64,000 bases of DNA, taken from NCBI GenBank assembly GCA_964513465.1, contig CAZEMR010000004.1, positions 550-64,549 of the forward strand, given 5' to 3'. Of the stretch, positions 2,643 to 47,072 are shown one piece after another. The notes beneath the pieces are model-generated. The model ran no database searches, had not been told where the DNA came from, and was given only the letters and a program-made list of their open reading frames with translations. The position numbers and the translations under genes are program-made. The DNA is from an uncultured Hyphomicrobiales bacterium. Its GTDB lineage: Bacteria > Bacteroidota > Ignavibacteria > Kapaibacteriales > UBA2268. Each line of letters begins with the position of its first letter. Position 1 is the stretch's first letter.

Positions 2643-2778
2643 ATTATAAAGTCGTGAAAATGAGGAAAATGATTTGTCAAAATTAGCAAAAAGCAGCGGT
2701 TCGTCAAATTTATTATTACAAAAAAAAGGAGCGGCCGGGTGGCCGCTCCCATGTGTCTTCGCCGTGTGGCGAGGGATA

Positions 2779-5700
2779 TTATTTAATCAGCACAACTTCC
2801 TGGGTCATTGTGTAGCTGCCTGTGCGGAGTATGATGATATACATACCCGAGGGCAGATCACTGCCGGAAAGCTGGAAGCTATGTGTGCCTGCCGAATAGG
2901 TGGCACCGTCGATAAGGCGCATCATTCTCTGGCCGGCCTGGTTGAGTACGTCGACTGTGACGCTCTGAGTAACCGGGATGGTGAAGGAGAGTTCTGCGAC
3001 TTCGCTGAACGGGTTCGGTACCGGTTCGTCGAAGATATAGCCGAGTTTGTGGAGGTCTTCCACTCCGACTTTACCGTCGATCGAGAACATACCGCTGCGG
3101 CTGTATTCCATCTGGGGATCGTTGTTCCAGATAGCGCGGACGATAGCTTCGTCTGTCTTATGCTCAGGAACAGCCCATCCGAAGGATTTAACTGCTGCGG
3201 GTATGTCTTTGCTGATTGACTGCCATGTCTGGCCGCCGTCTGCGCTCCACTGGAGGTCGAATCTATCGACATTGGATTTTGTCCAGCGGATTGCTTTTTC
3301 CTTGCCGCTATTGAGCACTTCGCCTGCCTGCGGATGTGTAATTGTAACATCGCCTGCAAGGATTCTGAACTGCGACGAGGTGGTGAGCACTTCGTTGGTA
3401 GTGGCGTTAACCATGCGGACTGCTGCCTGCTTGGTGTTAATCGCCGGTACTGTCCATTTGGTCTGGCCTTCTTTGGCATTGACTATTCCGGTTACGGGCG
3501 TCCATGCGTCAAGTCCGTTTTCGCTGAATTCGAAGCGGACGCTGACTGCTTCGTCATACGACCAGATGATGTGGTCGTCGGTGGCGCCTTTGTATACCGG
3601 ATCGCCAGCGCTCGGGCGTGTAATTTCGACAGGTGCGGGCTCGAGTACGAATGTGGCATCGCTGCGATCGATTTCGAGGTTGCCCTCTGCATCAACCATG
3701 CGAACAAGGCATTCGGTCGAGGTGACCTGCGGTGTTACCCAGCGGTAGCTTCTGGAGTTGATATCAACCGGATTAGGATTGATTCTGTCCCAGGTCTTGC
3801 CTGCGTCGAGCGAGAACTCAAGATAGACATTGCCGCTGACTGTGCCATTGGTGGCCCACTGAATTGTATTGGATTTGCCTGCTCTCCAGGTTTCTCCGCC
3901 GTTCGGAGCTGTGATGTTTGCATCTTTGCCCCAGTATGCCGGAGGAATATCGAGGAATGTACCATCGCCGGTTACAATGCGGCCGTCGACTGTATGGACG
4001 GATTCATTATACCAGTTGAATGTGTACATTTCCTGCGGGCGGATAACTTTGAATACCAGAGTACCGATATATGTATAATCGCTGGGTACGTTCTGGCCGG
4101 GGCCTTCGGTATAAGCGTCATACATAATTTCGATAGTACGGATGTTCGGGATAGGATCGACCGTATTCTTTGTCGGGCCGGTAGCTAATTTGCCATAGCC
4201 AAGGTCATTGTATCCTTCGCCGTCGTTGTCGAAAATGACCGTCTGCTCTTTGATCAGAGATTCGAATTTGAGCGATGCGGGATCATAATCGATTGCAAAT
4301 GTGGCATTTGCCAGTGCGAAAAGTTCGCCTGTGTTTTTGATGTAGAATGGTATTTCGATTGTATTGTTGTTGCGATTGACGCGTGTTCTTGCGCTGACTT
4401 CATAGCTTACATTGCTGAGCACTACGTCTTTTGCGTATTTCTCCACTCTGAGTCCGTCGTGGTGATATTCGCCGCCATTTGCGAGATAATTCTCCGCGCC
4501 GCGGATGAACATTTCGGAATATTCCGGATATTCGGGATGGACAACCGTCATCGGGTCGTCGGAGACGAGATAATCCAGAATGGGCGATTCTTCGACTGTT
4601 CCGTCGTCGAATTTATTGATGACGCTCAGATTGGTAAGCGACGAAACCTTGTTGGTGTTTCTGTCGACGATGGTACGGTCGTCGGCGTCGATGTTGCCGT
4701 CGCCTGTAACATCGCTGCTCATATTGCTGCCGCCAATGTCTGCGCGAACCTGTGCGCGGTCGGCTGCGTTAATCTGACCGTCTTTGTAAACATCGCCGCC
4801 GACCATTGCTGCTATAGCATTGGCGCTTCCGCCAGCCTGACCATTATTGAAGATCAGACCTGTGGCTGCGTATGCGGTCTGAGCGGGATCGGTTTCTGCG
4901 TTGCCCCATGCGGTGTATTTAGTGCCGTATGAAGGCGGAGTTGTCGATGCTTCTGCGTCTGTGATTATGTTGTCTACCACGCCGTCCCAGGTCTGGAAAT
5001 CCCAGCCGGATTCGACAACCCAGGTGCTGACATCGTCGCCCGAGTAGTAGAACGGAGCCGCATAAGCGGACATAATCGGCAGGTGGTTCAGATGCTCGAC
5101 CACTACAAAGTAATCATTATCTGAAATTTCTGTGAATACGAACGGAACGTTTGCGAATTCAGATCCGTCTGCGCCGCGGCCAACGCCTGCGGTCGGGTCG
5201 AGAGCTGTTGCATCGTTCGAATAGCCATTTGTGGATTCTGCTTCGGCAATGAGAACACCAGGCGTATTGGCATTGTCGCTGTAAAGCTTGATGCGGATAC
5301 CATTGTTGTCATATGTCGAGCCGATATCGTTCTGGATGGCTCCGGCCAGTCCTGTGTGATAGCCCTCGAGCAGTACGCGAACAGTAAAGTTACTCGGAGG
5401 AGTAATATTGAACAGGTCGCTTTCTGTTCTGAGTGTGGGCATATCGCCATTGGTGCCGTTTTCGTATTCAAATGTTGTGCCGTTGATTGTGGAGCGGCCC
5501 TGCAGACGCAGACGACCATTGGTCATAGTTGCTGCAATCTGGCCGTAGTCATTATATACACCGTCGTTGTTCAGATCCGGATCCGCTGCGGAAACATCCA
5601 GGCGTGCGCTGAACTGCGATTTGCTGGAGGTGCCGGGGAATTCGAAACTGTTATTGCCGGTGGGCAGAGTCATCGCATTCGGGTATGCCACCGAATATGC

Positions 5701-8700
5701 TTCACTTGTTACTGCCTGATAGGGCTGAATGATCATACCGCCGCCGCCAAGTACCGAATACTCGAGGTCTGCGTGTGTGGCGCCGCCGCTGCCATTAATA
5801 AATGTAGAAGCTGCATCATTACGGTTATAATCAAATCCTACCCAGCGTACCTGAAGGTCGTCTTCGGTATTAGGCACGGCCTGTTCGTATTCGGGCTTGA
5901 TAAGCTTAAGCAGCGGTTTGGTTGCTACATAAGAGAGTGTTCCGTTTTTCACGCGGCCGACAAGATCGTCGTCCACCGGATAAACCGGAATGCTGTTCTT
6001 GATACCGCTGTTTACGAATGCGCCGCCGTTCATCGAATATGCTGCAACCAGATATTTGGAATAATTGGTGCCGCCGAGGAGCGCCAGTTCGTCTGCACGA
6101 ATAGTAAGCGCGCCCTGGATGAACTCGGTCATTTCAGTAGGCTCGTTGCCGGTCGATTTCATGTTTGCCGGGTTGTTGTTCCAGAAACGTACTTCGCGGA
6201 GCTCGCCAACGAAGCCATGGCTGTCTGTACCCTCTTCATCGCTCGGCTCATAGCCGATGTACGAAGGATAATTGTTCTGCACGTCAGGAGCAACTCCTGT
6301 GGTCGATGAGAATTCCTGGCCGGTCTGAACTTCGCCGTCGATATAGAATCTGACGTCGTTGTCGTTGCCGTTACCAAGATTGAACCATACGCCGACGTGA
6401 GTCCAGACGGAGTCCATGCGCAGCAGGTTCGGGCGTTTCAGCGAATAGTCAGCATCGCTGGATGCGGTTGTGATGCCGGCCGGGCTGCCAACTGCGAACT
6501 GGATGGTTCCGTCGGCAAGCAGACGCAATGCATAATGCAGGCTGTCGCCGGTCATTGTGCTGTCTTTTTTGCTGACGATTGCGAAGTATTCCTCATCTTC
6601 CGTGGGGAATCTGTAGGGCTTAATCCATGCTTCGATGAAGCCGGTAGCGCCGGAAAGATTCAGCTCGGTATTCGAAGGAACTTCGACAAACGCACCGCCG
6701 GTGTTCTTAAGAGCGAAGTAAGGGGCAACTGTGAAATCGCCCGACATGCTCTCGATATCTTCCTGGCCGCGATCGGTCGTACCGGATACCTTCAGCTTAA
6801 CTGTTTTGGAATAATTAGTGCCGATCGGGACAAGACCCTGAAGGTCATCATCCTGGCCGGTGATAGTTACGTTGTTATAGGGTTCCCAAGTGGCATAGCC
6901 ATCTTCGATCTCGACGTTTGTCAGAGCAACAGAGGGAACCTGATTGTCGTTTGCGTCATAGTAGTTAGCTCCGCCGTCACGGCTGAACTGTACCATAATG
7001 TCGTCCGTATCCGGAGCTGTGCTGCCAAGGCCATAGCCTGCCCAGCGAACTTCGTAAACCACGTCGTCAACATTGCGCACACCCTCTCCGCCGATGGGCG
7101 AAGTAATGGTGATATGCGAGCGATCGGGGCGGTAGTTAATATTATTATTAACTGCCGATGCGCTGAGAGACGGGTCTTCGAAATAATTCAGCACTGTTGC
7201 GCCGTTCTGGTAATCAGTATCGTCGGCAACATCCGTGCGGATACCCTGGAATGTATAATAAAGTTCCAGGCCTGCGCGTTCATCGCCGTTAACCGGATTA
7301 ATGGATGCAACGTCTCCAGCCGGATCGTAGACGCCGCCGATATTCTGGCGAATTTCGTCCTGGCTGAGCGCATAGCGCCATACGGTTGCTTCTTTGATGC
7401 CTGCATGCAGGTAGTCGTCTTCTTCAATTTCGTCATTGGGATTGACACCGATCCAGATAGGATGGTTGGTCACCAGAAGACGAGGATCGACTGCGTAGTT
7501 ATTTGTATATTCGTCAACCATTTCGCCGTTTACATAGAGCGATACCACATTGTTCGAAACTGTGGCTGCGATATGCACCCAGTTGTTCGCATGAGCATCC
7601 TGGATTGGCGAAGCATCGCTGGTAGTCGAGAGCGCTGTCTGCGACTGTACCATGCCGATATAACCGCTCGGGCCGCGGCCTTCATTTTCGCGAGCACGGA
7701 ATGCCGGATACTGACCATCGGCCAGATAGAGCATCCATGCGCCTTCGGCTGCGCCTTCAGCAGGGCCGGCCGAATTAGCAACGATTGCCGGTTCGCCGTC
7801 TTCGTTGACGGAGTTCAGATTCACCCAAGCCATTACCGTAAGCTGGGTTGCCTGGCTGTAGTTGCTTGCAGTTCTGAAATATGAACTGGTGCCGTCGAGC
7901 TGTACAAAGAATAAGCGGCCAAGCACGAATGTTTCGTCGCTCTCATCTCTGCGGCAGTCGTCGGTATAGGCCGCACGAGTTGTGATTGCTTCGTCGGTGT
8001 CGGTTTCTGCAATCTGGCTGATCCGTATTTTACCATTTTCTGATCTGTAGGGGAAGTTTTCGCTGTTTTCCCAGATCACACGGATGACGCCGGAGTAATT
8101 AACGATCAGAGGATCGCCGTCGCCGTCAGTGATGTAGTATTCGCTAGTGGAACTGACAACGTCAATCTCGCCGGAAACATAATTGGCAACGTTAGCGCCC
8201 ATGGCTGTTTCGTCGTTGACTGTTTCGGCTACTCGGCCGATTGTGCTCCAGGAGCTTCCGCCATTGAGCGAATACTCGAGGAGATAAGCCACACTGCTTT
8301 CGCCATAATCATATGTACCGGTATTGATAATTCCACTTCTTTCGAAGTATACCGGATAGCCCTGATTCGGCGAAATCGAAGCATATGCCGGATCGGGATA
8401 TCTGTTGATTGCCTGAGTACCGCCATTGGGATTCAGGATTGTAATGCCGCGGATAACAAAGTCGTCGGGATCTACAAAGGATACCTGGTCGGTTATGTTA
8501 TTTCCGTCGGCGTCTGTAATTTCAATAGTGCTTACAAAATCAGCAGTATTAAAAGCAATTTCTGTCAGATCGGTGCAAGTAAGATTTGCATGATCCTGAA
8601 TATCGAATTTCAGCATACCGGCAAACGAACCTCTGCCGGATGACGACGGCTGATAGCCAATGCCGCCCATGTCAAGATTAACGTCTATCTGATATGTATA

Positions 8701-9117
8701 TACATGGTTGCCGCCCTGTTCGGCATCCGCAGGGGATGCGCCGAGCGCAGATGTATAGCCATAAGTCACATCGCTGAAAGGCGATGTAAAGGTAGTGTAT
8801 GCGTCTGTCTGGTTGATGTCGACATCCACGGAGTCCGTGCTTTCGTAGGCCTGATTGCCCTCGGGCGCAAGGAAGTCCGTATTATAGACAACAGAGATTG
8901 AAGCATTACCAAGATTGGGAGCATCGGTCGTCAGCGATTTGATCCAGAATTCCACGCCGATCTGGTCGCCCAAACGGCGCTGACGTGTGGATATTTCGTA
9001 GACGTCCTGGGCGTAAAGCTCTCCTGCCAGAAGGAAGAATCCTACCGCAAACCAGAGCAGCTGCCCCCACGAAAACTTTAATCCATGTTTTCTTGGTTTG
9101 ACAATTTTGGTTATCAT
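2779..9117 (-). CDS. giant (2112 aa) secreted cell-surface protein, T9SS cargo
   Basis: N-terminal signal peptide. Shared N-terminal domain with the 14056..21024 paralog. Two LamG/ConA-like modules (approx aa 395-590 and 800-985), BNR-like 'GGxxW/SxDxGxTW' Ig repeats, dockerin-like duplicated Ca-binding segment (aa ~1438-1495). Type-A CTD '...PVPNPFSEVAELSFTIP...GMYIIILRTGSYTMTQEVVLIK'. Confidence 0.85.
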   Translation of the reverse strand: MITKIVKPRKHGLKFSWGQLLWFAVGFFLLAGELYAQDVYEISTRQRRLGDQIGVEFWIKSLTTDAPNLGNASISVVYNTDFLAPEGNQAYESTDSVDVDINQTDAYTTFTSPFSDVTYGYTSALGASPADAEQGGNHVYTYQIDVNLDMGGIGYQPSSSGRGSFAGMLKFDIQDHANLTCTDLTEIAFNTADFVSTIEITDADGNNITDQVSFVDPDDFVIRGITILNPNGGTQAINRYPDPAYASISPNQGYPVYFERSGIINTGTYDYGESSVAYLLEYSLNGGSSWSTIGRVAETVNDETAMGANVANYVSGEIDVVSSTSEYYITDGDGDPLIVNYSGVIRVIWENSENFPYRSENGKIRISQIAETDTDEAITTRAAYTDDCRRDESDETFVLGRLFFVQLDGTSSYFRTASNYSQATQLTVMAWVNLNSVNEDGEPAIVANSAGPAEGAAEGAWMLYLADGQYPAFRARENEGRGPSGYIGMVQSQTALSTTSDASPIQDAHANNWVHIAATVSNNVVSLYVNGEMVDEYTNNYAVDPRLLVTNHPIWIGVNPNDEIEEDDYLHAGIKEATVWRYALSQDEIRQNIGGVYDPAGDVASINPVNGDERAGLELYYTFQGIRTDVADDTDYQNGATVLNYFEDPSLSASAVNNNINYRPDRSHITITSPIGGEGVRNVDDVVYEVRWAGYGLGSTAPDTDDIMVQFSRDGGANYYDANDNQVPSVALTNVEIEDGYATWEPYNNVTITGQDDDLQGLVPIGTNYSKTVKLKVSGTTDRGQEDIESMSGDFTVAPYFALKNTGGAFVEVPSNTELNLSGATGFIEAWIKPYRFPTEDEEYFAIVSKKDSTMTGDSLHYALRLLADGTIQFAVGSPAGITTASSDADYSLKRPNLLRMDSVWTHVGVWFNLGNGNDNDVRFYIDGEVQTGQEFSSTTGVAPDVQNNYPSYIGYEPSDEEGTDSHGFVGELREVRFWNNNPANMKSTGNEPTEMTEFIQGALTIRADELALLGGTNYSKYLVAAYSMNGGAFVNSGIKNSIPVYPVDDDLVGRVKNGTLSYVATKPLLKLIKPEYEQAVPNTEDDLQVRWVGFDYNRNDAASTFINGSGGATHADLEYSVLGGGGMIIQPYQAVTSEAYSVAYPNAMTLPTGNNSFEFPGTSSKSQFSARLDVSAADPDLNNDGVYNDYGQIAATMTNGRLRLQGRSTINGTTFEYENGTNGDMPTLRTESDLFNITPPSNFTVRVLLEGYHTGLAGAIQNDIGSTYDNNGIRIKLYSDNANTPGVLIAEAESTNGYSNDATALDPTAGVGRGADGSEFANVPFVFTEISDNDYFVVVEHLNHLPIMSAYAAPFYYSGDDVSTWVVESGWDFQTWDGVVDNIITDAEASTTPPSYGTKYTAWGNAETDPAQTAYAATGLIFNNGQAGGSANAIAAMVGGDVYKDGQINAADRAQVRADIGGSNMSSDVTGDGNIDADDRTIVDRNTNKVSSLTNLSVINKFDDGTVEESPILDYLVSDDPMTVVHPEYPEYSEMFIRGAENYLANGGEYHHDGLRVEKYAKDVVLSNVSYEVSARTRVNRNNNTIEIPFYIKNTGELFALANATFAIDYDPASLKFESLIKEQTVIFDNDGEGYNDLGYGKLATGPTKNTVDPIPNIRTIEIMYDAYTEGPGQNVPSDYTYIGTLVFKVIRPQEMYTFNWYNESVHTVDGRIVTGDGTFLDIPPAYWGKDANITAPNGGETWRAGKSNTIQWATNGTVSGNVYLEFSLDAGKTWDRINPNPVDINSRSYRWVTPQVTSTECLVRMVDAEGNLEIDRSDATFVLEPAPVEITRPSAGDPVYKGATDDHIIWSYDEAVSVRFEFSENGLDAWTPVTGIVNAKEGQTKWTVPAINTKQAAVRMVNATTNEVLTTSSQFRILAGDVTITHPQAGEVLNSGKEKAIRWTKSNVDRFDLQWSADGGQTWQSISKDIPAAVKSFGWAVPEHKTDEAIVRAIWNNDPQMEYSRSGMFSIDGKVGVEDLHKLGYIFDEPVPNPFSEVAELSFTIPVTQSVTVDVLNQAGQRMMRLIDGATYSAGTHSFQLSGSDLPSGMYIIILRTGSYTMTQEVVLIK
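4633..4806 (-). other. dockerin type-I-like duplicated Ca-binding module inside the 2112-aa protein
   Basis: 'GGDVYKDGQINAADRAQVRADIGGSNMSSDVTGDGNIDADDRTIVDRNTNK'. Two 'DxxxDGxIxxxD' loops each followed by a helix, matching the cohesin-binding dockerin consensus (DVNxDGxVNxxD...). Confidence 0.6.
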
Positions 9118-9177
9118 AGCTTAAACCCTTTATTAATTATAAATATTTAATTTCTTTCTGCTCTACATTTACTATGA

Positions 9178-12100
9178 TTACGGAGTAACGCTGAATATTT
9201 CTGTGCTCATCGTGGTGATCAGCAGAGTATAATTTTCGGTATCATTTGCGCCATCCACACCATAAACGCGTACCGTATAGGTGCCTGCATCCAGGTAGTT
9301 CACAACGAAAGCCTCGTTGTTCGTGCCCGGGCGGATTGCTCTGCGGATACGGTTTCCGTCCGAATCATAGAATTCAATGTTATAATTCTTGGGAAGCGTA
9401 TAGATTCTGCCTCTGACATTTGGCGAAGCATTGGTAATCGTAAAGCTAAACCAGTCTTCGTCGGTCGAGCTGCTGATGCGGCCTTTGACCGGTGTGTTAG
9501 TGCCGATCGGGGCTGCTGTCAGACGTGTATCATTCGAGCCGAATTCGGCGTCATCGTCGGTTGTACCGGTTGTGGTGGTCAGCTGGTTGAAGTTGCTCAC
9601 GCCGGGATCGGTAAGGTAATTTTCGTTGCCTGCCGAGCCGGTGTATGCATATACGCTGAAATAGTAATCGGTCGAGGGTGCGAGGCCTGTGACCTTGACG
9701 CTTGTACCGGTGCCTTTATAAAGCACAACAGCATCACCGACGCTGGAGCCCGCTCCATAAATCGAGTTGGCTACATAAGTCGTACCATCCGAGGGATGCG
9801 TATCGATTGTCGATACTGCGCGTGCGATAAGCACTACCGGGTCTGCGGTTGCCGGAGCAGTCCACGATACGTCGACTGTTGTCGCGGCAACGTTAGAGAA
9901 TGCAATGCCGGAGGCCTGATCGGTCGGGTCGTCGCCGATTAAGGAAATCTGCTCGCTTACGCCAGCCTGGACTGCGTCGCCACTCGGGTCGGTGGTGGCA
10001 GTGGTGGCCAAAAGCTGGATTCCGGATTCACCGCTTGCATTCGGGATCGAAAGATTGCTGAATATAACTGAATTCGAGCCGATTTCAATATCGCTCTCGC
10101 GCGTTGCCGGTGCGTCCAGTGCAGTTCCGAGATGAGTCGATACGTTTACGGTATAAGCTTTTGTAGCGGTTACCGGATCGCCGTTCTCGTCCTGAAGCTG
10201 GATCGTAACGCTGAAGTTATTACCGCTGGTTGCGGGGTTTGGTGTAACTTCGGTGAATACCAGTTTATATACATCAGATGTGAGCGCTTCGGCAGCGGAG
10301 GTTGAAGTGGCTTCGTCGGCTGTAAATGCGGCCCATGTGCCTTCAAGTTCCGATGCGCTTACCGCAAAGTCGCTCATTGCAAGTTGGCGATCGACTGGTA
10401 CTGTATATGATGCATAATCATAATACGAATCCCACTCGGTGCCATCCCATCTGGCTGCAAATGTCTTGTTTGCGGCCGGAGGAGTGTCCCCGTCGTATGC
10501 GGTGTTCCACTCCAGGCGGACTTTCATGTCGTCGCTAGGAGCTGTGCCCTCGGGCGTTACTGTCCATGCAATCTGCACTGCGTTTTCGGGATCGCCTGCG
10601 CGGCCGTATGTCGGGTTGATTATTTCGCTGGATACTTTGACTACCTGCGAGCTGCCTGCGGTCTCGAATTGCATCGAAATCGGGCGATAGGTGGTTGCTG
10701 GGCCGCCGCCAATCGGGAAGGAAGTCAGAGCATTTGTAACCGTTCTCTTCATATTACCGATAATATGATCGGTAGTTGTAAAGTCCGGTAGTGTGGCCGA
10801 AGGGCCAAAAGTCAGTGTATTGTCGTCGCCTGTGTAGAGATTCTGCTCTGTGCCGCCGGTATAAGATAGCGTGCCCAGTATGGTCAGATCGCTGCCGAGA
10901 GTTACCTCTTCATTGAGCTCTACGTCATATGCGGTGTTGTCTGTAAAGAAGTTTGCGGGAATTTCGGTGTTATCGTCAAAGTCCACTTTCGAGAGTGTCC
11001 CTGCGGTGACCGATCCTGAAATAAGCTGGATCGAACCGGCGAGATCGAGTGTGTACTGATCGATATCGAAATACTGCACGCCTGTGTTGAGGGTGAAGAT
11101 ACCAACAACCGTAAGGTCGTCCGCAAGTGTTTCCGGACGATTTATCTGGAGATTTTGAATAGATCCTCCTGTGAAATATATATTGGAGAAATCTTCTACT
11201 GTGCCGGTACCGCTAAGGATTAATTTGCTATCACCATCCGTGGCGTCCATTTTGTTAGCTGCGTCGCCTTGGCTAATGTCGCCATAGACTTCAAGCTCAG
11301 AAGCATCCAAATCAAGGGTTGCATTCAGAGTAAGATCGCCGTTAACTGTCAGGTTGCCATCAAGTCCATCGGCCGATGTTACCAGCAAATTGTATAGAGT
11401 CGGATCGCTGTCGGGAGTGAAAAGAGCATCTTCGAAGTCTCCACTGACGTGGGTCCCGAATATCTCATATGTACCTGCGTTACCATATATAGTTCCGTTT
11501 GTATAACTTACTGTGCCTCCAACAGAGAGGGTGTTTGTGCCGAGATCGACAACACCATCAGTCAACGTAAGCGTACCGCCGTCGAATACTTTGACGTCGA
11601 TTCCAAGCGCAACATCGCTCGAAGTGCCGGCAGTGTTATTAACAGTCAAAATCCCAATCATGACTGCGTTATTACCTGCATTGCCATCGCCGGTGATGTT
11701 CTGCACGCCTGTGCCGTCGAGCTCCACGGTGCCAGTATTGTCGAATGTCGAGAACGATCCGCTGGAACCGTTGACCGTAATGTCGCCGGAAATATTAATC
11801 TGGTCGCCGAGTGTGACGGCTACAATGACATCCTCTGCCGTAATGCTGTGTGGCATCAGATTGCCATCTGTTCCGGCTGTGAATGTAGCGCCACTGCCAT
11901 TTGTACACGTGATTATGCCATCATCGGCATTGAAAGATGCATTTAACTGGCAATCAAAATATGTACCTGCGAGCGTGAAGTCGCTTGTGGTTGTTACATC
12001 GTTGCCTGCTGTTCCTTCAATTACTACATCATATAGCTGAAGAGTGCCTGTATTGGTAATCGATTTGGTATCTGCGCCAGAGAAAGTCACTGTGCCGGAA

Positions 12101-13581: not shown

Positions 13582-14019
13582 GATAAATTCCTATTAAATT
13601 GATAAAAATATTTACCTTTAATTTTTATCTTCTTGTTTATTAATTATCCAGCCAAAGCTCTGATGCCTGGCTAATGCGGCAATATTTCAGCCCGGAGAGC
13701 GGATTGAGTTTTGTGTCAGTCTTCTCATGAATCCTCCATAATGAGTGTTACAAATTTCCCTTCCCTTGGGATTTATTATTTCTTGATCTATGTTATGATT
13801 TCTCATCGATGTTTTTTCGGATTAATATCTACCGGTCTTTGCTATCATTATCGGTACGATTATTTTTTTCTTTAGTAAGCCGCTTCAAAAATTCCTTACA
13901 AAGATCAGCCCGGTCAATATTGACCAATCCATTATTTTGGGCTGGGCTAATTTTGCCGGATTTTACATCTGGCACGGGTTAGATTTTTTACTGGATTTCC
14001 AATTTCTTTATTAATAATC

Positions 14020-14044
14020 GGCGCAGACCATTACGGCCTGCGCC
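14020..14044 (-). terminator. hairpin downstream of the 2322-aa gene (possible terminator)
   Basis: GGCGCAG-N11-CTGCGCC inverted repeat 12-36 nt past the stop at 14056. Flanking U-run on the minus strand is weak. Confidence 0.3.
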
Positions 14045-14055
14045 TATCAATGTCA

Positions 14056-17000
14056 TCATTTAATTATATTTATCTGCCTGATCAAACGGAAGTTCTCCGA
14101 TTCGATATACAGATAATAGCTGCCCGAAGAAATCCCCTTCAGCGGGATTACCACTGTGTGGTTGCCAGCAGGGAATACTTCTTCGCCAAGCTGCTTCAAA
14201 GCAGCGCCGCTGATATCCATAAGCCGGATATTCAGCTTTGCCGCTCCGGGTATCGCAAATCGCAATTTTGCGTTATCGCCGCCCGCCGGATTCGGATACA
14301 CTTCTCCGAACTCGTACCCAGCGGGAAGTATGTCTTCGACGCTGCCGATCATAAATGTAACCGCGTCATATTCCATTTCGGGATCGCCGTTCCATATAAA
14401 TCGGATTTTTGCCGTTCCGGTTATTTCGGATGGAGTCCAGTCTGCGTATCCCAATATCGGATTTACTTCGCGATACAGAGTCTCCCAGTGGTTTCCGCCG
14501 CTATAGCTTACCTGGATGTCGAATGCTTCGGCGTTTAGCGCCTGCCATCTTATGCGGGTCTTTACGTCAACTTTCGGGCTGTCGTGCGATCTGGGATAGG
14601 TTATGTCTACCCGTCCGTTCAGAATTTTGAACCGGGAGCTGGTTGCGACAACTTCCCCGCTGGATTCCTCGATCATCCTCACCATTGCGGATTTCGTGGT
14701 TACTTCAGGTATGCGCCAGTTAGCTCTTTTCATTTCGGCATTATATGTGCCAGGTATTCTTTGCCAGTCCGATCCGTCGGCCGAGAATTCGAAGTAGACC
14801 CGATCGATACCCTGTGCAGTCCACTGGATTTCTCCGACTTTCCCTCCGTAATATAGCTGATCACCGGAGGAGGGTCGGATAATTTGAGCAAAAACGGAGT
14901 ATATCGAGAATTTAGCGTCGCTCGTATCCAGCGCAACGCGGCTTCCGCGGTCGATTATGCGCACAAGGCATTCTGTTGCATTGGTTATTGGCACGTTCCA
15001 TTTATATTTAAGCGATGCCGAGGATACCGGTTCGGAATTTATGCTGTTCCAGCTTGCTCCGCCATTGGTGGTATATTCCAGATCGACTTCTTCGTCCGCA
15101 TTGGTGGTCCACTCTACCAGATACTCGCTGCCGGCAATAATACCTTCGCCGCCGTCGGGGCGCACGATTTCGGCATCGTAGAGCACAATCGGAGCCATCT
15201 GCAGAAAATCACCATATGGAGTGGCAAGCACGCTGTCCGTGGTATGAACAGATGTGGCCTCGTGCCATTCGAAGCTTACCAGCCCGGTGGCTTTCCGAAG
15301 ATTGAACTGCAGAGTGCCGAGATAGGTTTCTTCGTTGGGTACTGCGATCCCGCCGGGATTGGCAAAAGCATCGTAGTCGATTTCGATTGTCCGCATATCC
15401 GGGATTGCATTTTTCATGCCTTCGTCCGGCGCCGAAGTCAGCGCGTTATATCCGGCTGTCGTATCGGTAAAGATCACTTCGCCGGTGCCCGAAAGCTTCG
15501 CGAAATCCATCATCGATGAATTATATTTTACTGCGAAGGTGCAATTGGCCAGGCCGAACTGCCTTCCTTTATTTTTAATATAAAAATGAAGATCGACCTT
15601 GCTGCCATTAACTTCCGGCACAGTCCACACTTCATAATCAAGAGGTCCGGCCATCGGACGGTCGCCCGATATTTTGGCATCGGCATTATTCATCGCCGAT
15701 TCCGCAGCGCGGTTGAATCTTGCGCTTAGCCCGGGATTTTCGGGAGCCACTGCAATATTCACATCCGGCGGGGCAATCACATAATTGCTCTGAGGGGCAT
15801 TATTTTTGCCTGTACGGGTCGGGAAGGATATGTCATATAATGAAGATACCTTGCCATGGTTGCGATCGACAATCGTGCGATCGTCTGCGTTGACTAGTCC
15901 GTCGCCGGTGACGTCGCTGCCGATAATCGATGTGCCTGCGTCTACGCGTACGCGAACGCGGTCGGCGGCGTTGATCATTCCGTCGCGCACTATATCTCCA
16001 CCGACCAATGCCGGCATCGCCGAGGCAGAACCGCCTGCAACGCCATTATTGAACACAAGGCCTGTGGTGGAATACCCCACCTTGGTCGATGTGGCAATTG
16101 CATTGCCATATGCTGTGAAATAATTCCCCGACCATGGATTCGTAGTCGCCGAGGGCAGCACATTGTCGTCGGTGCCGTTCCAGCTTTCGAAGTCCCAGCC
16201 GGATTCGATCGGCCAGGTAGAGCGATTATCGCCAACGTACTGGAATGGAGCGGAAAATCTCGACATTACCGGCATGTGGTTGATATGCTCGACCACTACC
16301 CAATAATTCCCATCGGTAATTTCAGTAAACACAAAATTGACATTTCCGAATCTCATGTTCCCGGCATTGCGGTTGGTCGGGTCGCGTTCGTCGTAGCCCT
16401 GTGTCGATTCTGCCGAATCTATCAGAGCGCCGATTCCGCCCGAATTATCCCGATATAATTTAATTCTCAGTCCACCTTCGTCAAAGCTGGTGCCAATATT
16501 TCTGATCTGGTTGCCTGCGACTACGCCGTTGTGGTAGCCCTCGAGCAATACACGAACGGTAAAGTTACTCGCCGGCGTTACGGTAAACAGCGGGCCCTCG
16601 CTTTGAATAGTATTTTGTTCGCCATTGATTGTATATTTTGCCGTCAGGCGGAATCTCGCATTTGTGAGCGCGGCCGCCAGCGGACCCTGGTCGTTGAAGC
16701 TGCCGTCATCATTTTCGTCGGGATCGGCTATCGAAGCATTCACCTGCGAGGCGAAATACTTCGAACTTGTGCCGCCCGAGTATAAATAGCTGGAATTTGT
16801 CGGCAGCGACATCGATTCCTGCGTATTGCCCTGCCAGTAGCGGCCGCCGAGGTACTGATACGGCTGGATCACTTTGCCACCGCCGCCACGGATAGAAAAT
16901 TCGAGCGAAGGCGGGGTTTCCTGGTTGGCGCCAACGTTGAATTCCTGGCCATTATAATTGAAGCCTATCCAGCGCACGCGGACGTCTGTCGCGGTATTGG

Positions 17001-20000
17001 TCACTCTCTCTTTGAATGCGGGCTCAACCAGTTTGACGTAGGGCTCGGCCGGGACGTATCTGAGATCGTTTCCGTAATGGCGGACAATCGAATTCGTGGT
17101 GGGATAATACCCCACGGCGCGATTATATCCATTTTTGATAAATGATCCGCCATTGAACGAATACGCTGCGGCAAGATTTGCTTTGCTTGAAGTAAGCAGA
17201 CTATCGGTCGAAACCGACTGCGCGCCCTGCACGAACAGAGTCAGATCCGTGGGCTCGGTGCCCGATGCCGACACATTATTCGGCAGTCCGTTCCATAGCC
17301 TTACTTCCCGGATTTCGCCTATGAAATTACCGTTGCCGTTGTCGCTGGTTACTATATTCTGCACCGGCGCCGAAGCTGAACCGTCCTGATTCGATATATT
17401 AACGTCGGTCTCGCTCTGAAGCTGTGTTACATTTGTCAGATTTACATCAATATTCATTGGTGCGGTTTCGTCGAATGCCGCGCTGCCAAGAGCCAGATTC
17501 AGATCGTATGCATAAAGCATAATCGATTGCGGCTGGCTGAGAGACCCATTAGTATTGAACACCAGATTGTCGCTCATCACGCTGACATCGGCCGTATTGC
17601 CGGCGGCGGCATCGAGCGTGAGTCCGGATTGGGGATTAGTCGAATCGGCAATCACAAATGCAAGGTTCTTCGGAGTAGCCGCATCGAAGTCCTGAGCGCC
17701 GATTGCGGTATTAATATCCGAAGCCTCGACTTCAATCCGGAATGGGCTGCTGATCACTCCATTATTAAATGTTATAATATTCTCGCTGATCGTATTCCCG
17801 TCAATATTAATCTGAAGTGTATATTCATCCGGATCGGCATTGCGGGTGAATACCAGCTCGAGGTCGCGCTCATCGTTCTGCATATCCTGAATCGTTCCGT
17901 CGATAGTATATGCATCCCCCTCTGCCGCATTCGCATCGAGCGTACCGGTCAGGCTGACCTGTTCGGTCTGGCGCGCGATATCATTACCGTCAATTGTCTG
18001 GGTAAAATTGTATTCATTTAACTGATCTGTTTTAACAAAACTAAGCTCGAGCGTGTGCTCGTTGCCAGCCGCGTCGTAGATCTGAGCGCTGGTGGTTCGC
18101 TCGAAGTCCTCCGGGGTTCCCGAATATATATTCCCGCTGATTGTAACATTTTGCGTCTGCTGGGGGATGGTATCCCATGTCACCATCGTATAGCCGGGAT
18201 TATATCCGATATAAGTAGGATATTCATTCAGGAAATTGACCGAGAGATCCTCCCCAAGCTGTGTGGCAATGCTGTCCGCCCGCTGCACGGTGCCATCTAT
18301 ATAGAAACGGACTTCCGACTGGCCGAGGCCGCTGTTCAGGAATACATACGCGGCTACATGAGTCCAGGCCGAATCCAGCGATACGGAATTAGGCCGGACA
18401 ATCGGCTGGTCGATATCGCTTGTCGCGGTGCGCTCATTGCCCGTTGCATCCATCAGCTTTAGCTGGAGCTGGCCCGTAGGCAACAGATTGAATTCGTAAT
18501 GAAGCTCATTGGCATTGCTGTCCCTTTTCGCAAGAATCGGGAAATATCCTTCTTCTTCGGTGGGGAACCGGTATGGCCTGATCCATCCCTCGATGAATGC
18601 CACATTGCTGGTTATATTCATGCCTTCTTCGCCGTCTATGGCGAGGATATCGCCTTCTTCTATCGGCAGCGCAAAATACGGCGCCACCCAGAAATCATCG
18701 GATATATATGTAAGGTTGCTCTGAGTAAATGCCGATGTTCCGCGCATCCTCATGCTCACCTCGCGGGCATAAGGATTAATCGTGCGCAGATTGGCAGATG
18801 CATTATTATTTTCGTAGGGCTCCCATTGGGCAGTCCCGGTTTCGACGTCAACCGCAAGCGCGCCGCCAAGCTCCGAGCCTGCGGGATTGCGTGCGTAATT
18901 CCAGCTCGAGCCGCCGTCTATCGAATATTCGATAGCCAGATCGGCTGTCCCGGTGGTCGAAATATCGCCAAGACCGTAGGATACCCAGCGAATATCGAAT
19001 ACTTTGCCATTGATATTTGATACGCCGACTCCGCCGGTGGGTGCCGTCAGCCGGATGTGAGGCTGATCGGGACGATAGGTGGTGGCCAGATCGTCTGCCA
19101 CTCCGCCGCTGTAAAAATCGAGCGCCTGAGCGCCGTTCTGATAAGTCGAATTGCTGGCCTCATCGTCTTTTTCGCCTTCGAATGTATAATATAATTCAAG
19201 GCCGCGCCGAAGATCGCCATATGTCGATACATTCGTCGGATCGGAAACCCCGGCCACCCGGTTGCGGATTTCGTCCTGGGTGAGCGCTGTGCGCCATACC
19301 CGCACTCCTTTGATTCCGGCATGGAGATAATCCGATGCGTCGATCGAACCATTGGGATTGACGCCAATCCATACCGGATGCACGGTGGTCATCATACGGA
19401 TATCGGTAGTGCTGTCGTTAACCCGGCGATCGACCAGCTCGCCATTTACATATAAAGATATTTCATTATTATTAACTGTGGCGGTAAGATGCACCCAATT
19501 GCCCGAGTGATCCTGATCGAGCGGCTCGGCGTCCGATTCGGCCATCAGCGAATCTAGGCGATACGCCACCACCTTGCCGAGGTAGCCGTTTTCGCCGCGG
19601 GCCTGAATTTCGCGGACACGGAAGGCCGGATAGCGGCCGTCCTCCAGATAAAGCATCCAGGCGCCCTCGTTAGAATTATAGACGGGGGCTGCGCCCGGAC
19701 CGCCGCTGGACACCACAATTCCCGGCTCCGATCCATAATCCTGATAGCTGTTCAGGTTGAGCCATGTCTCGACCGTTAACTGAGTGGAATTGCTGAAATT
19801 TGTTTCGGTTTTCAAGTATTCGGAAGTACCGTTGAGCTGCATAAAAAACAGGCGTCCCAAAACGAATTTGGCGTCGTTCATATCAATTACGCTGCTTTTC
19901 TGACGCGAGGTAATCGAAGTATTAGTCGATCCCTGCAGCCTGATAACCCTCAGTCGGGCCTGTTCGCTGCGCTCGGTAAAGAATGGATTTTTCGACCAGA

Positions 20001-21024
20001 TCACCCGCACAGGCTTGCGGTAGTTAGACGCAAGCAACTGGGTGCCTTCCTGGGTCGTAATTATGTAACTATTATTTGTTGCTGCATTATAAATTTCTCC
20101 GGAAGCATAAAAATTATTGCCGGTCACCTGATTCGCTGCCAGGTCGGTCTCGGCCACCCGGCCAATGTCGGTCCAGGTAGCCCCGTTATCGAGCGAGTAT
20201 TGCAACAGGTAAGCCAGATCGGCATCTATTGCCGGGGGCGCGCCCGCCGGAGCTGTATAATTAGCCGGATTGACCGAGCGCTCGAAATATACCGGATAGC
20301 CGCCCGATGCATAATCATTCAAAAGCGATGCATAATTCTGGTCTCGATCGACCACTATTCCCGCCTTATTCGGCGAGAGCACCGTAATTCCGACCACCGT
20401 AAAATCCGCCGGATCGGTAAATGTTGTCTGCGATTCTATATCGTTGCTGTCGGCGTCGAATATACGTATATCGCCCGGCATAGTGGAATTGCTCCAGCCA
20501 ATCTCGGTCATAGCGCTTTCCGAAGGGCTGCCGGTTATATCGAACGACAATCTGCCGACAAAACTGCCGCGTCCGCCTGATGATGGCACAATTCCGCCCT
20601 GGCCAATATTAGCCTGATTAATTTCGAGCGAATAATAGCCACTCGAATAAGCCTGGGACGTCAGCGAATTATATCCATTGGCGCTGACCGCAAACTGTGA
20701 GCTGATATCATCGACAGGATCGGTCCGATTAATATTAACATTAATCGAATCCGTTGTTGATAGCGACTGACTCGCCGATGGCTGTAAATACTCGGAATTA
20801 TACTCCAGTACGAGCGAGGCATTACCAATACGCGGGGCAGAAGCCGATACCGCGCGCGCCCATATCTCGACATGTATCTGGTCGTAGCGGCGCCGCTGAT
20901 TCAGCGTGAATTCATAATATTGTGCATAAAGATCACCTGCTGTGAAAAGCAGTGCGACGAAAAGCATAAAGCCTATGCTTTTCCATGACTTAACGAATTT
21001 AAACGAGTTGGCGGAGATATGCAT
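14056..21024 (-). CDS. giant (2322 aa) secreted cell-surface protein, T9SS cargo, paralog of 2779..9117
   Basis: Signal peptide. N-terminal domain, LamG modules, 'RVLLEGYHNG...FTEITDGNYWVVVEHINHMPVMS' module and dockerin-like segment all collinear with the 2112-aa paralog. Type-A CTD 'VYPNPAGGDNAKLRF...SYYLYIESENFRLIRQINIIK'. Confidence 0.85.
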   Translation of the reverse strand: MHISANSFKFVKSWKSIGFMLFVALLFTAGDLYAQYYEFTLNQRRRYDQIHVEIWARAVSASAPRIGNASLVLEYNSEYLQPSASQSLSTTDSINVNINRTDPVDDISSQFAVSANGYNSLTSQAYSSGYYSLEINQANIGQGGIVPSSGGRGSFVGRLSFDITGSPSESAMTEIGWSNSTMPGDIRIFDADSNDIESQTTFTDPADFTVVGITVLSPNKAGIVVDRDQNYASLLNDYASGGYPVYFERSVNPANYTAPAGAPPAIDADLAYLLQYSLDNGATWTDIGRVAETDLAANQVTGNNFYASGEIYNAATNNSYIITTQEGTQLLASNYRKPVRVIWSKNPFFTERSEQARLRVIRLQGSTNTSITSRQKSSVIDMNDAKFVLGRLFFMQLNGTSEYLKTETNFSNSTQLTVETWLNLNSYQDYGSEPGIVVSSGGPGAAPVYNSNEGAWMLYLEDGRYPAFRVREIQARGENGYLGKVVAYRLDSLMAESDAEPLDQDHSGNWVHLTATVNNNEISLYVNGELVDRRVNDSTTDIRMMTTVHPVWIGVNPNGSIDASDYLHAGIKGVRVWRTALTQDEIRNRVAGVSDPTNVSTYGDLRRGLELYYTFEGEKDDEASNSTYQNGAQALDFYSGGVADDLATTYRPDQPHIRLTAPTGGVGVSNINGKVFDIRWVSYGLGDISTTGTADLAIEYSIDGGSSWNYARNPAGSELGGALAVDVETGTAQWEPYENNNASANLRTINPYAREVSMRMRGTSAFTQSNLTYISDDFWVAPYFALPIEEGDILAIDGEEGMNITSNVAFIEGWIRPYRFPTEEEGYFPILAKRDSNANELHYEFNLLPTGQLQLKLMDATGNERTATSDIDQPIVRPNSVSLDSAWTHVAAYVFLNSGLGQSEVRFYIDGTVQRADSIATQLGEDLSVNFLNEYPTYIGYNPGYTMVTWDTIPQQTQNVTISGNIYSGTPEDFERTTSAQIYDAAGNEHTLELSFVKTDQLNEYNFTQTIDGNDIARQTEQVSLTGTLDANAAEGDAYTIDGTIQDMQNDERDLELVFTRNADPDEYTLQINIDGNTISENIITFNNGVISSPFRIEVEASDINTAIGAQDFDAATPKNLAFVIADSTNPQSGLTLDAAAGNTADVSVMSDNLVFNTNGSLSQPQSIMLYAYDLNLALGSAAFDETAPMNIDVNLTNVTQLQSETDVNISNQDGSASAPVQNIVTSDNGNGNFIGEIREVRLWNGLPNNVSASGTEPTDLTLFVQGAQSVSTDSLLTSSKANLAAAYSFNGGSFIKNGYNRAVGYYPTTNSIVRHYGNDLRYVPAEPYVKLVEPAFKERVTNTATDVRVRWIGFNYNGQEFNVGANQETPPSLEFSIRGGGGKVIQPYQYLGGRYWQGNTQESMSLPTNSSYLYSGGTSSKYFASQVNASIADPDENDDGSFNDQGPLAAALTNARFRLTAKYTINGEQNTIQSEGPLFTVTPASNFTVRVLLEGYHNGVVAGNQIRNIGTSFDEGGLRIKLYRDNSGGIGALIDSAESTQGYDERDPTNRNAGNMRFGNVNFVFTEITDGNYWVVVEHINHMPVMSRFSAPFQYVGDNRSTWPIESGWDFESWNGTDDNVLPSATTNPWSGNYFTAYGNAIATSTKVGYSTTGLVFNNGVAGGSASAMPALVGGDIVRDGMINAADRVRVRVDAGTSIIGSDVTGDGLVNADDRTIVDRNHGKVSSLYDISFPTRTGKNNAPQSNYVIAPPDVNIAVAPENPGLSARFNRAAESAMNNADAKISGDRPMAGPLDYEVWTVPEVNGSKVDLHFYIKNKGRQFGLANCTFAVKYNSSMMDFAKLSGTGEVIFTDTTAGYNALTSAPDEGMKNAIPDMRTIEIDYDAFANPGGIAVPNEETYLGTLQFNLRKATGLVSFEWHEATSVHTTDSVLATPYGDFLQMAPIVLYDAEIVRPDGGEGIIAGSEYLVEWTTNADEEVDLEYTTNGGASWNSINSEPVSSASLKYKWNVPITNATECLVRIIDRGSRVALDTSDAKFSIYSVFAQIIRPSSGDQLYYGGKVGEIQWTAQGIDRVYFEFSADGSDWQRIPGTYNAEMKRANWRIPEVTTKSAMVRMIEESSGEVVATSSRFKILNGRVDITYPRSHDSPKVDVKTRIRWQALNAEAFDIQVSYSGGNHWETLYREVNPILGYADWTPSEITGTAKIRFIWNGDPEMEYDAVTFMIGSVEDILPAGYEFGEVYPNPAGGDNAKLRFAIPGAAKLNIRLMDISGAALKQLGEEVFPAGNHTVVIPLKGISSGSYYLYIESENFRLIRQINIIK
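15841..16002 (-). other. dockerin type-I-like duplicated Ca-binding module inside the 2322-aa protein
   Basis: 'VGGDIVRDGMINAADRVRVRVDAGTSIIGSDVTGDGLVNADDRTIVDRNHGK'. Same spacing and consensus as in the paralog. Confidence 0.6.
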
Positions 21025-27109: not shown

Positions 27110-27955
27110 TTAATAGCTGATTGTCAAACCCGGTATTGCGTCATTCAGATCGTTGCGCTCATCGAGCGGCACATCATTGCCCCAAAGCTCCAGATAGCCA
27201 AGATTTCGCATTCGTTTCATCGCATCTGGCAGCTTGGTTAATTTATTTTCGGAAATTTCCAGCGTGTGCATCTGCTGCCACAGCTGGACGCAATCCGGAA
27301 TTTCATTAAGCTGATTTTTCGAAATCGCCAGATGTTCAAGGCCTGTCAGAAGGCATAATTCGCCCGGAAATTCCGTGAATTCATTGGCCATAAGATATAA
27401 TTTGCGAAGATTCGTAAGCTCGGCGAATTCGGTCGGGAGCTCGCTGAGCCGGTTGAAATCGAGATCGAATTCAGTAATATTCTTCAGCAATTTTACCTCG
27501 GCGGGCAACTGCATTATTTGGTTATAGCTCATGCAAATCCCGGTGAGCGAAGGCATGCGCGACATCAAGCGGAATGCGCCGGCCCAGTTCATTGTCGGAT
27601 TTGCAGTAAGATAAATTGTCTCAAGATTCTTTAGTTTTGTTAAATTTTCCGGCAATTCCGTGAGCATATTCCCGACAAGGAACAGCTCCTTCAGATTGGG
27701 CAATTGCGCGAGTTTATCTATCGCATCCCGAAGATCGAGCTCCGGATTATTGCTCAACGCAAGGTTTTCGAGATTTTTGAATTCCTTAATCTTATCCGGC
27801 AATATTTTAATATCCTTCATCGATAGGTCGAGCTTTGCGACCGAATCGGGCTGACCACCGGAGAGCTCTTCCCAGTCGATATTAGGAGCTTCCTGAGATT
27901 TTGCCGTAATGGCAAACACGAAGATCAGCGAAATAATCAGAGCAATTTTTTTCAT
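27110..27955 (-). CDS. secreted leucine-rich-repeat (LRR) protein
   Basis: Signal peptide 'MKKIALIISLIFVFAITAKSQ'. About ten 22-24-aa LxxLxxLxLxxNxLxxLPxxI repeats. Confidence 0.75.
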   Translation of the reverse strand: MKKIALIISLIFVFAITAKSQEAPNIDWEELSGGQPDSVAKLDLSMKDIKILPDKIKEFKNLENLALSNNPELDLRDAIDKLAQLPNLKELFLVGNMLTELPENLTKLKNLETIYLTANPTMNWAGAFRLMSRMPSLTGICMSYNQIMQLPAEVKLLKNITEFDLDFNRLSELPTEFAELTNLRKLYLMANEFTEFPGELCLLTGLEHLAISKNQLNEIPDCVQLWQQMHTLEISENKLTKLPDAMKRMRNLGYLELWGNDVPLDERNDLNDAIPGLTISY

Positions 27956-31025: not shown

Positions 31026-31102
31026 GTTTTTGAATATTTTGTAATTATTTATAAATTCCGGGAATTTGTGAAATGAATTCATTCACCAATCCCGGAGTTC
31101 TC

Positions 31103-46878: not shown

Positions 46879-47072
46879 CGTTTACTTTAATGTCTTCATT
46901 ATAATTTACAAAATAAAAATTTACACAAATATTAAAAGAAAAATTTGAAATTTAAACAGGTAAATGCAATTTTGTGTAAAAATCTTTACACTGGATTCAC
47001 AATTGTAACCAAATTGTATTTCAGGTTGTCTTCGAATCAGTGATTTTTGAAAAATATCGAGGATTTATTCTC

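Follow-up and report, generated by a model that had tools for sequence, protein, structure and literature searches.

A conserved gene pair of Kapabacteria encoding a predicted type IX-secreted giant surface protein and a beta-helical partner

Three very long genes stand side by side in a 64,000-nucleotide stretch of contig CAZEMR010000004.1 (positions 550 to 64,549, assembly GCA_964513465.1; hereafter the window), and they raise the question of whether such giants constitute one surface system and, if so, which of the genes belong to it. The initial annotation of the window had proposed a dedicated locus for a multi-component surface structure, in which two paralogous giants flank a beta-helix protein. 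All three open reading frames (ORFs) proved to be intact, consecutive and co-oriented on the minus strand, as had been described; they are referred to here as G1 (2779..9117, 2112 amino acids, aa), M (9178..13581, 1467 aa) and G3 (14056..21024, 2322 aa), and every feature of this block given below lies on the same strand. Along the minus strand G3 is upstream, followed after a 474-bp spacer by M, a secreted protein with a beta-helix and a conserved tail, and then, after the 60 bp first reported, by G1. The conserved unit within this block is M together with the downstream giant of the G1 type, whereas G3 is an old paralog that is only sometimes adjacent. The bacteria concerned, the Kapabacteria, form a class of Bacteroidota with few or no cultured members that is common in wastewater, mats, and sediments, and to our knowledge nothing is known of their cell surface.

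Gene order was compared across 78 related loci, with one genome per species scanned; ORFs were called in these loci and compared with the proteins of the window, and the giants were placed in a tree. One clade of this tree includes G1, while the remainder, G3 among them, consists of two further branches. In 40 loci an M-like gene lies directly upstream of a G1-clade giant, on the same strand and at a gap of 0–190 bp. A single G1-clade giant with available upstream sequence lacks M (L025), and no giant outside the G1 clade has M upstream in any of the 78 loci. The adjacency holds down to 36–39% identity of M. Homologs of the window genes thus do co-occur, and a chance juxtaposition, which the initial annotation had named as the alternative, is refuted for M and G1. 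Clustering of neighboring ORFs yielded no other gene family in more than 6 loci, and the pair is therefore a free-standing two-gene module that is found in varied genomic contexts.

The trio as a whole does not share this constancy. Of the 25 loci that could be evaluated, 7 have a giant from outside the G1 clade immediately upstream of M (L002, L016, L018, L030, L031, L036, and L042); in L031, L036, and L042 a partial upstream ORF carries the family cohesin domain (E 1e-33 to 1e-38). The two paralogs are 0.8–3.2 Mb apart in two complete genomes (L006 and L080; L050 and L055). In the closest relative of the window the prs-L25-pth-SpoIIE-dapA-G3 arrangement is kept (L037), with the M-G1 pair located on a different contig (L026). 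The trio is present in several deep sub-branches and may for this reason be an ancestral tandem arrangement that was later broken up. What survives of the proposed dedicated locus is a non-random set of surface-protein genes with a recurrent M-G1 pair, but not the trio as its unit.

The age of the G1–G3 duplication can be judged from the sequences themselves. Their proteins align end to end, from the signal peptide to the last residue, at 40–42% aa identity, whereas blastn aligns only 862 nt of the two genes (66–80% identity) and megablast of G1 against G3 finds no match. Such weak DNA similarity, combined with this level of protein identity, indicates an old duplication and not an assembly artifact, in agreement with what had first been supposed.

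Sequence signals fit two transcription units, G3 alone and M-G1 together, and agree with the synteny. A terminator-like hairpin (14020..14044) with an 11-bp stem and 8 GC pairs is located 12 nt past the G3 stop codon, at the start of the AT-rich G3-M spacer, and a strong intrinsic terminator (2727..2750), a 10-bp stem followed by T8, lies after G1. By comparison, the M-G1 spacer (9118..9177) contains an AAAGGG ribosome-binding site and no hairpin. Ribosome-binding sites of the AAAGGA type are common to nearly all M-G1 spacers. The window and its nearest relatives, with gaps of 42–69 bp, are without a hairpin in this position, and in about half of the related loci a GC-rich hairpin is present after the M stop codon and before the start codon of G1 (L010, L012, L013, L015, L019, L022, L031, L034-L036, L040, L042, L047, L056, L071, and L074). 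This element is a possible attenuator, and partial termination there could set an excess of M over G1.

The giants are modular proteins with a shared plan. An N-terminal part consisting of a signal peptide, a cohesin-like domain, and BNR-type immunoglobulin-like (BNR-Ig) modules alternating with two LamG domains (BNR-Ig, LamG, BNR-Ig, LamG, BNR-Ig) is followed by a family-specific module, a dockerin, a linker that holds a conserved helix, a cohesin, three further BNR-Ig modules, and a type IX secretion system (T9SS) C-terminal domain (CTD) of type A. G3 has the same order as G1, with the addition of a nested FlgE_D2 insert. The signal peptides of G1 and G3, as read from the sequence with no predictor, show a hydrophobic core and then ...LYA↓Q. 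A predicted signal-peptidase I site A↓Q, read in the same way, is common to G1, M, and G3, whose mature N-terminus would be Gln. Cleavage at A↓Q is typical of exported Bacteroidota proteins, the N-terminal Gln of which is cyclized to pyroglutamate.

Most of the domains first assigned to the giants were recovered. The two LamG stretches of each protein match Laminin_G_3 (PF13385) above the gathering score, at 118.9 bits in G1 and 86.6 bits in G3; in G1 they correspond to 7351..7896 (aa 408–589), the domain with the most conserved positions, and 6163..6717 (aa ~801–985). The BNR-like Ig repeats, six per giant, have only sub-threshold matches to Reelin_subrepeat-B; three BNR/Asp-box Ig-like repeats of G1 (3058..3933, aa 1729–2020) have sub-threshold matches to both Reelin_subrepeat-B and CHB_HEX_C and show a repeat pattern visible in the sequence. 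The type-A CTD is unambiguous in G1 (2791..3018), which passes TIGR04183 (30.4 against a cut-off of 23) and, with the domain scanned alone, PF18962 (31.4 against 27). That of G3 (14074..14301) is borderline when taken alone (22.6 against 23); at the family level, 40 of 40 CTDs tested match PF18962 (best E 2.3e-14). Domain scans found no catalytic domain in the giants or in M.

The dockerin-like segment that had been noted is a Dockerin_1 domain in G1 (4660..4797, aa ~1441–1486), with 33.9 bits against a PF00404 cut-off of 22.9 when the segment is scanned alone, and the corresponding segment of G3 (15850..16002, aa ~1675–1725) aligns to it. Two Ca2+-binding loop-helix repeats with D at loop positions 1, 5, and 12 can be read from the G1 sequence. 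Between the two paralog clades no domain is better conserved than the dockerin, with an identity of 0.53. The cohesins, which along with the FlgE_D2 insert and the conserved tail of M had been missed in the initial annotation, came to light by structure. An AlphaFold2 (AF2) model of G1 aa 1225–1730 has a mean predicted local distance difference test score (pLDDT) of 88 and a predicted template modeling score (pTM) of 0.89, and a Foldseek search of the PDB retrieved dozens of type I, II, and III cohesins at a probability of 1.00, with E down to 8.8e-8 and a target TM-score of up to 0.76, which places a cohesin at 3934..4422 (aa 1566–1728). A precomputed PF00963 match exists in a few giant homologs. 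The N-terminal cohesin-like domain (8440..9009, aa 37–226) has no Pfam match, and its PDB sequence matches are type II cohesins only (E ~0.03); profile alignment by hhalign relates it to the C-terminal cohesin at 97.7% probability (E 1.4e-12). This homology implies that each giant has two cohesin-like modules and one dockerin.

Partners for these modules were looked for in the neighborhoods. The family dockerin hidden Markov model (HMM), run on ~700 neighboring ORFs, gave one other match, an insignificant one (best domain E 0.02, L020), and the two cohesin HMMs matched only giants or giant fragments among the neighboring ORFs. Immediately before the dockerin lies the family-specific module (4822..5412, aa 1236–1432 in G1), the 'VRVLLEGYH...VVVEHLNHLPIMS' segment of the initial annotation, with the motifs RVLLEGYH, VVVEHxNHLPxMS, and ESGWDFxxW. 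It is strongly conserved with many invariant residues, yields no Pfam or PDB match in sequence and profile searches, and in the AF2 model consists largely of beta strand at high pLDDT. When 1.84 billion representative proteins were scanned in full with phmmer, 56 matches were returned. Of these, 52 (E 7.4e-9 or better) are giants of ~1,900–2,300 aa in which the module has the same relative place, or shorter pieces; four are weak, and three of the four are repeated partial matches in unrelated proteins. Since its matches are nearly confined to the giants, the module is a signature of the family.

G3 differs from G1 by an insert of ~280 aa (17320..18147, aa ~960–1235) in a loop of its second LamG domain. 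The insert matches the flagellar hook domain FlgE_D2 (PF07559) at 60.9 bits against a cut-off of 22.7 and possibly comprises two tandem copies; searched as a single sequence, it gave no match in the PDB. It is present in 2 of 76 aligned giants (G3 and L080) and is missing from the closest relative (L037). The D0/D1 rod-type terminal helices of flagellar hook proteins were not found in G3, which is not a member of FlgE; the insert looks like the co-option of a domain, and a recent one, rather than a hook protein. On one related metagenome contig (L001:6740-9598) the flagellar export genes fliP, fliR, and flhB lie immediately upstream of the M-G1 pair, from which it follows that these bacteria possess flagellar genes. 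A flagellar link as a general feature of the family was considered and rejected, as no other locus shares this neighborhood and the insert is confined to a small subclade.

The middle gene encodes a protein of a different kind. From the N-terminus M consists of a signal peptide, a right-handed beta-helix (10942..13494, aa ~30–880), a poorly modeled middle region, an Ig-like stretch, an FN3 domain supported by a domain match (9634..9912, aa 1224–1316), a PPC domain (9259..9462, aa ~1374–1441), and a short tail; the beta-helix-like fold and FN3 domain first assigned to it were both upheld. The M-like proteins range from 1,458 to 3,317 aa, with a beta-helix of varying length, whereas the FN3-PPC-tail end is conserved. 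At the customary rise per turn, a helix of about 850–2,700 residues is estimated to form a rod of some 20–60 nm. Autocorrelation of the repeat region of M detected periodicity only weakly, at 21, 61, and 121 residues (z≤2.6), and a profile of the middle region (aa ~870–1220) searched against the PDB gave nothing, its best match being a CshA repeat at E 0.02. M has no C-terminal beta-barrel translocator or N-terminal two-partner secretion (TPS) domain by Pfam and NCBIfam, and domain scans and the family HMMs detected no dockerin or cohesin in it.

The PPC assignment of the last globular domain of M narrowly fails for the window protein itself (PF04151, 25.6 against a cut-off of 25.9) but is clear at the family level, where 15 of 39 M-like proteins match, the best at E 5e-10. 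A profile of the domain aligns over its full length with the collagen-binding domain of the clostridial collagenase ColH (3jqw, E 9e-6), also aligns with that of ColG, and displays the classic PPC motifs. No CTD of type A (PF18962) or type B (PF13585/TIGR04131) was found in M, which had been described as lacking the former, and there was no NCBIfam match. Against PF18962 the window protein scores 16–17 bits (cut-off 27), and weak matches occur in 19 of 39 M homologs; these weak matches reflect a short shared beta-sandwich motif. That the domain is a divergent type-A CTD was considered and rejected, given that it aligns to the CTD of the giants over 46 columns only, compared with the full-length ColH alignment and the PPC motifs.

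M ends in the heptapeptide EIFSVTP (9181..9201), the conserved extreme C-terminus having the form ...(S/T)EIFSVTP-COOH. This sequence or a close variant (EIYSVTP, EIFSVTQ, EYKSETP, EIFSQVE) terminates nearly all M-like proteins, and the tail pattern was found in 35 of 776 ORFs from the window and related loci, all 35 of them M-like. Across 34 loci the variants fall into three classes, EI[FY]SVT[PQ], [ED]Y[KER]S.T[PQ], and EIFSQVE or ..LTE, which track the sub-clades of the partner giants; this fits vertical co-inheritance and is by itself no proof of co-evolution. A profile search with M C-termini returned 4 proteins only, from a candidate list dominated by FN3 words, and produced no deeper alignment.

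The giants belong to a family restricted to one lineage. The giant family comprises at least 161 clusters at 90% identity; among the best 120 of these, most members are ~2,000–2,200 aa in length, with a few of up to ~2,320 aa and a single fragment of 1,391 aa, and identity to G1 is 39–54%. Their named source organisms are Kapabacteria or Ignavibacteria. Records of proteins 100% identical to M and G1, from a metagenome-assembled genome, carry the name Candidatus Kapaibacterium sp., a genus that the NCBI taxonomy assigns to the class Eximiradiia of the phylum Bacteroidota. Over the ~2,100 aa of the giants conservation is even, with a single true linker at aa ~1500–1560, and 268 positions are at least 85% conserved in both paralog clades. 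M appeared rarer in a word-based search (13 matches), owing to the fast evolution of its repeat region; through synteny, 40 M-like genes were found. Many of the metagenome-assembled genome records that contain the Kapabacteria-type pair are titled 'uncultured Hyphomicrobiales bacterium', and others 'Chloroflexota' or 'Chitinophagaceae' (L003, L005, L014, L018, L019, L021, L025-L027, L030, L031, and others); such taxonomic labels seem mistaken, given that the loci encode T9SS cargo of this family. A literature search on the family, including Kapabacteria, Kapaibacterium, and Eximiradiia in combination with T9SS, LamG, or cell morphology, retrieved nothing relevant, and no paper on it was found, in line with the earlier statement that such a locus is not a named system.

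What, then, might the pair do? With slightly less than even confidence, the locus is read as a lineage-specific surface module of Kapabacteria, in which a T9SS-anchored scaffold is co-expressed with a beta-helical fiber or adhesin, with M-G1 as its core and G3 as an ancient paralog of G1. G1, M, and G3 would be exported by Sec by means of their signal peptides, each with a predicted N-terminal Gln after cleavage. The giants would then cross the outer membrane through the T9SS and be kept on the cell surface by their type-A CTD, a step inferred with high confidence because this fate is established for type-A CTD cargo (PMC10202324). Each would display two LamG lectin-type domains, six BNR-type Ig modules, one dockerin, and two cohesin-like domains, and the giants might bind themselves or each other in a Ca2+-dependent manner through the latter two, giving a scaffold or a rigid stalk. 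With lower confidence, the dockerin is proposed to bind a cohesin-like domain of the same or the paralogous giant and so to generate oligomers or a scaffold.

In the same scheme M would be a beta-helical fiber of variable length, with a tip that carries FN3, a collagenase-type PPC binding domain, and the EIFSVTP end. It would be made from the G1 transcript and displayed with G1 as an adhesive or ligand-binding element. A physical cooperation of M and G1 is suggested with moderate confidence because their pairing is near-perfect and ancient and because no signal known to carry proteins across the outer membrane is present in M. Ligand binding, whether of a glycan, a polymer, or another cell, is suggested over catalysis by the LamG and PPC domains and the long beta-helix, and an adhesive or glycan-binding role is predicted for the giants and M.

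Several observations weigh against this scheme. M is without a recognized T9SS CTD, so that its route across the outer membrane is unexplained. No M-binding surface specific to G1 could be localized from per-domain identity between the clades or from clade-specific positions; the latter number 12, are scattered, and all fall outside the family-specific module, dockerin, and C-terminal cohesin. In loci with a hairpin between M and G1, co-transcription may be partial. The C-terminal cohesin remains below the PF00963 gathering score (19.0–19.2 bits against 24.1), and the dockerin Ca2+ loops, as read from the sequence, have Y or T at position 3 in place of the usual N/D. Finally, the high pTM of the segment formed by the module, dockerin, and cohesin could mean that binding is intramolecular and gives a rigid unit and not an intermolecular assembly; because of this score, dockerin-cohesin binding within a single chain is regarded as equally open.

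Other readings of the same facts must be weighed. The giants could be the two subunits of a T9SS-dependent lattice like that of TfsA/TfsB in Tannerella forsythia, a surface-layer (S-layer)-like coat built by cohesin-dockerin contacts to which M would be an accessory spike or an unrelated passenger. Genomes usually have two paralogs, both with a type-A CTD; their even and strong conservation over ~2,100 aa is what many packing contacts would be expected to produce, and the family dockerin and cohesin modules are found, among neighboring ORFs, only in giants, bar the one insignificant dockerin match. There is also a precedent, in that T. forsythia T9SS mutants lose the TfsA/TfsB layer (PMC4175972). 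The coat nevertheless seems rather unlikely, as the paralog genes are usually unlinked and the partner to which a giant is always linked is M, which a lattice does not need. It is also doubtful, and to much the same degree, that M and G1 are merely co-regulated adhesins, two distinct binding proteins, at the surface or secreted, that are encoded in one operon and make no contact. The absence of a visible clade-specific interface in G1, the lack of a dockerin or cohesin in M, and the hairpin that separates the two genes in many loci would all suit such independence. Against it stands an adjacency that is almost perfect and, with M identity down to 36–39%, very old, which is hard to explain in the absence of functional dependence; moreover, M has no known outer-membrane-crossing signal and its invariable neighbor has one.

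In a cellulosome-like scaffold, the giants would use their cohesins to recruit dockerin-bearing enzymes that break down polymers at the cell surface. The cohesin fold, dockerin, LamG lectin-type domains, and CTD anchor that would suit this are all present, and such a role has been proposed for a Cloacimonadota scaffoldin with a T9SS CTD (PMC8542988). This function is nonetheless distinctly improbable: each giant combines two cohesin-like modules with its own dockerin and has no tandem cohesin array, neither the giants nor M contain a catalytic domain, and the neighborhoods of the 78 loci contain no carbohydrate-active enzyme and no significant match to the family dockerin. That unrelated large genes have come together by chance is hardly credible; the irregular adjacency of G3 to the pair (7 of 25 loci) would allow it, but the recurrence of M-G1 in 40 loci, at deep divergence and in varied contexts, does not. 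The reading of M and G1 as a co-expressed fiber and scaffold, to which G3 is an ancient relative, is retained as the preferred one.

A bolder version of this reading, which must be called improbable at present, would make M a CTD-less cargo that reaches and stays on the surface only via its cognate T9SS giant. Its PPC domain and invariant tail would then act either as a T9SS signal of a new class, for export or attachment, or as a docking peptide to which G1 binds, and the carriers would be joined into a surface scaffold by contacts between cohesin and dockerin. If true, such display would be a previously unknown two-partner 'carrier and fiber' mechanism in Bacteroidota. Should EIFSVTP prove to be a sorting or docking signal, a new principle would be at hand; otherwise the pair would add one more lineage-specific adhesin family. 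In either case a question is posed for the T9SS field, namely how a beta-helix protein of 1,500–3,300 aa without a known CTD, encoded beside a giant that has one, reaches the surface. The M-giant pair, with or without the paralog, is class-wide in Kapabacteria, is under strong constraint over its whole length, and had not been described previously. Its coding load is ~10–11 kb per genome, or ~18 kb in the window together with the paralog, and proteins of this size are likely to dominate the contact of Kapabacteria with surfaces, polymers, or other cells. The pair also places cohesin and dockerin modules in a setting that is non-cellulosomal, T9SS-anchored, and possibly self-assembling.

The rest of the window offers a context for these predictions. 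The block itself is flanked by ordinary housekeeping genes, with lgt and a comM-like ATPase gene on one side and dapA, a SpoIIE-type phosphatase gene, pth, the L25 gene, prs, and tRNA-Gln on the other, and its G+C content is unremarkable across the three genes. Elsewhere in the window are five further predicted T9SS cargo genes with a CTD (30402-31025, 31073-33211, 39959-43741, 47040-49013, and 50222-53128), which lend indirect support to T9SS secretion of the giants; none of the T9SS core genes (PorK/L/M/N, Sov, PorU/V) was found within the 64 kb. The five encode two small FlgD_ig/CTD proteins, a 1260-aa LamG/legume-lectin/PKD/CTD protein, a CTD-bearing M1 peptidase, and a CTD-bearing BNR protein. 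The last adjoins the gene of a 244-aa 'SprA-related' family protein (PF12118; 49299-50033), and the density of secreted proteins is unusually high for 64 kb. Two leucine-rich-repeat (LRR) proteins of 281 and 319 aa with strong LRR matches are encoded at 27110-27955 and 45919-46878. Proteins of this type, uncommon in bacteria, frequently act in contacts between proteins or with a host. At 34530-38084 lies the gene of a 1184-aa class II (B12-dependent) ribonucleotide reductase with a C-terminal TSCPD domain; its barrel is matched in two stretches, and this split might be due to an insertion such as an intein.

How does the pair compare with systems that are already known? The large protein always encoded together with a specific partner recalls type-B CTD cargo and its PorP/SprF-like partner, exemplified by SprB/SprF of Flavobacterium johnsoniae (PMC10202324). 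In the present case, no PorP-like barrel serves as the partner, the downstream gene bears the CTD, which is of type A, and M matches neither PF13585 nor TIGR04131. The beta-helix of M has a fold in common with type V adhesins, and comparison was made with pertactin, Vag8, Fap2, and TibA, with the TpsA proteins EtpA and HMW1, and with a Gram-positive serine-rich repeat protein (SRRP) adhesin. Unlike the type V proteins, M has no autotransporter barrel or TPS domain, ends in FN3, PPC, and a heptapeptide, and comes from a T9SS phylum, where it is encoded beside a T9SS giant. Its last globular domain resembles the collagen-binding domains of ColG/ColH (3jqw, 1nqd), with which it shares a full-length alignment and the D-x-D-W-F and G-x-Y motifs, but M is a non-protease fiber protein in which this domain is followed by a conserved tail of 7–10 residues not found in the collagenases.

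For the giants, the cohesin fold and the above-threshold Dockerin_1 match are shared with cohesin-dockerin systems, both the clostridial cellulosomes with type I and II cohesins (e.g., 5k39, 1tyj, 2y3n) and non-cellulosomal modules, and the non-catalytic module that precedes the dockerin recalls, by its position only, the X-module of type II X-dockerins. Unlike in cellulosomes, the cohesins and dockerin of the giants are part of one polypeptide in a ratio of two to one, with no enzymes and no cohesin array; the cohesins have very low sequence similarity to known ones (8–17%), and position 3 of the dockerin Ca2+ loops is atypical. TfsA/TfsB, compared on the basis of the literature only, are likewise large secreted proteins, two related ones per genome, with a signal peptide and a PF18962/TIGR04183 CTD preceded by Ig-like modules. 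The giants differ from them in their ~2,100-aa length with LamG, cohesin, dockerin, and family-specific modules, and in that the gene to which a giant is always linked encodes a CTD-less beta-helix protein and not a paralog. In kind, the locus is a combination of T9SS type-A cargo, non-cellulosomal cohesin-dockerin modules, and a beta-helix adhesin; in its working it would come closest to a surface scaffold or an S-layer pair of the TfsA/TfsB kind, or else to the scaffoldin with a CTD anchor proposed for Cloacimonadota, while being a member of neither group.

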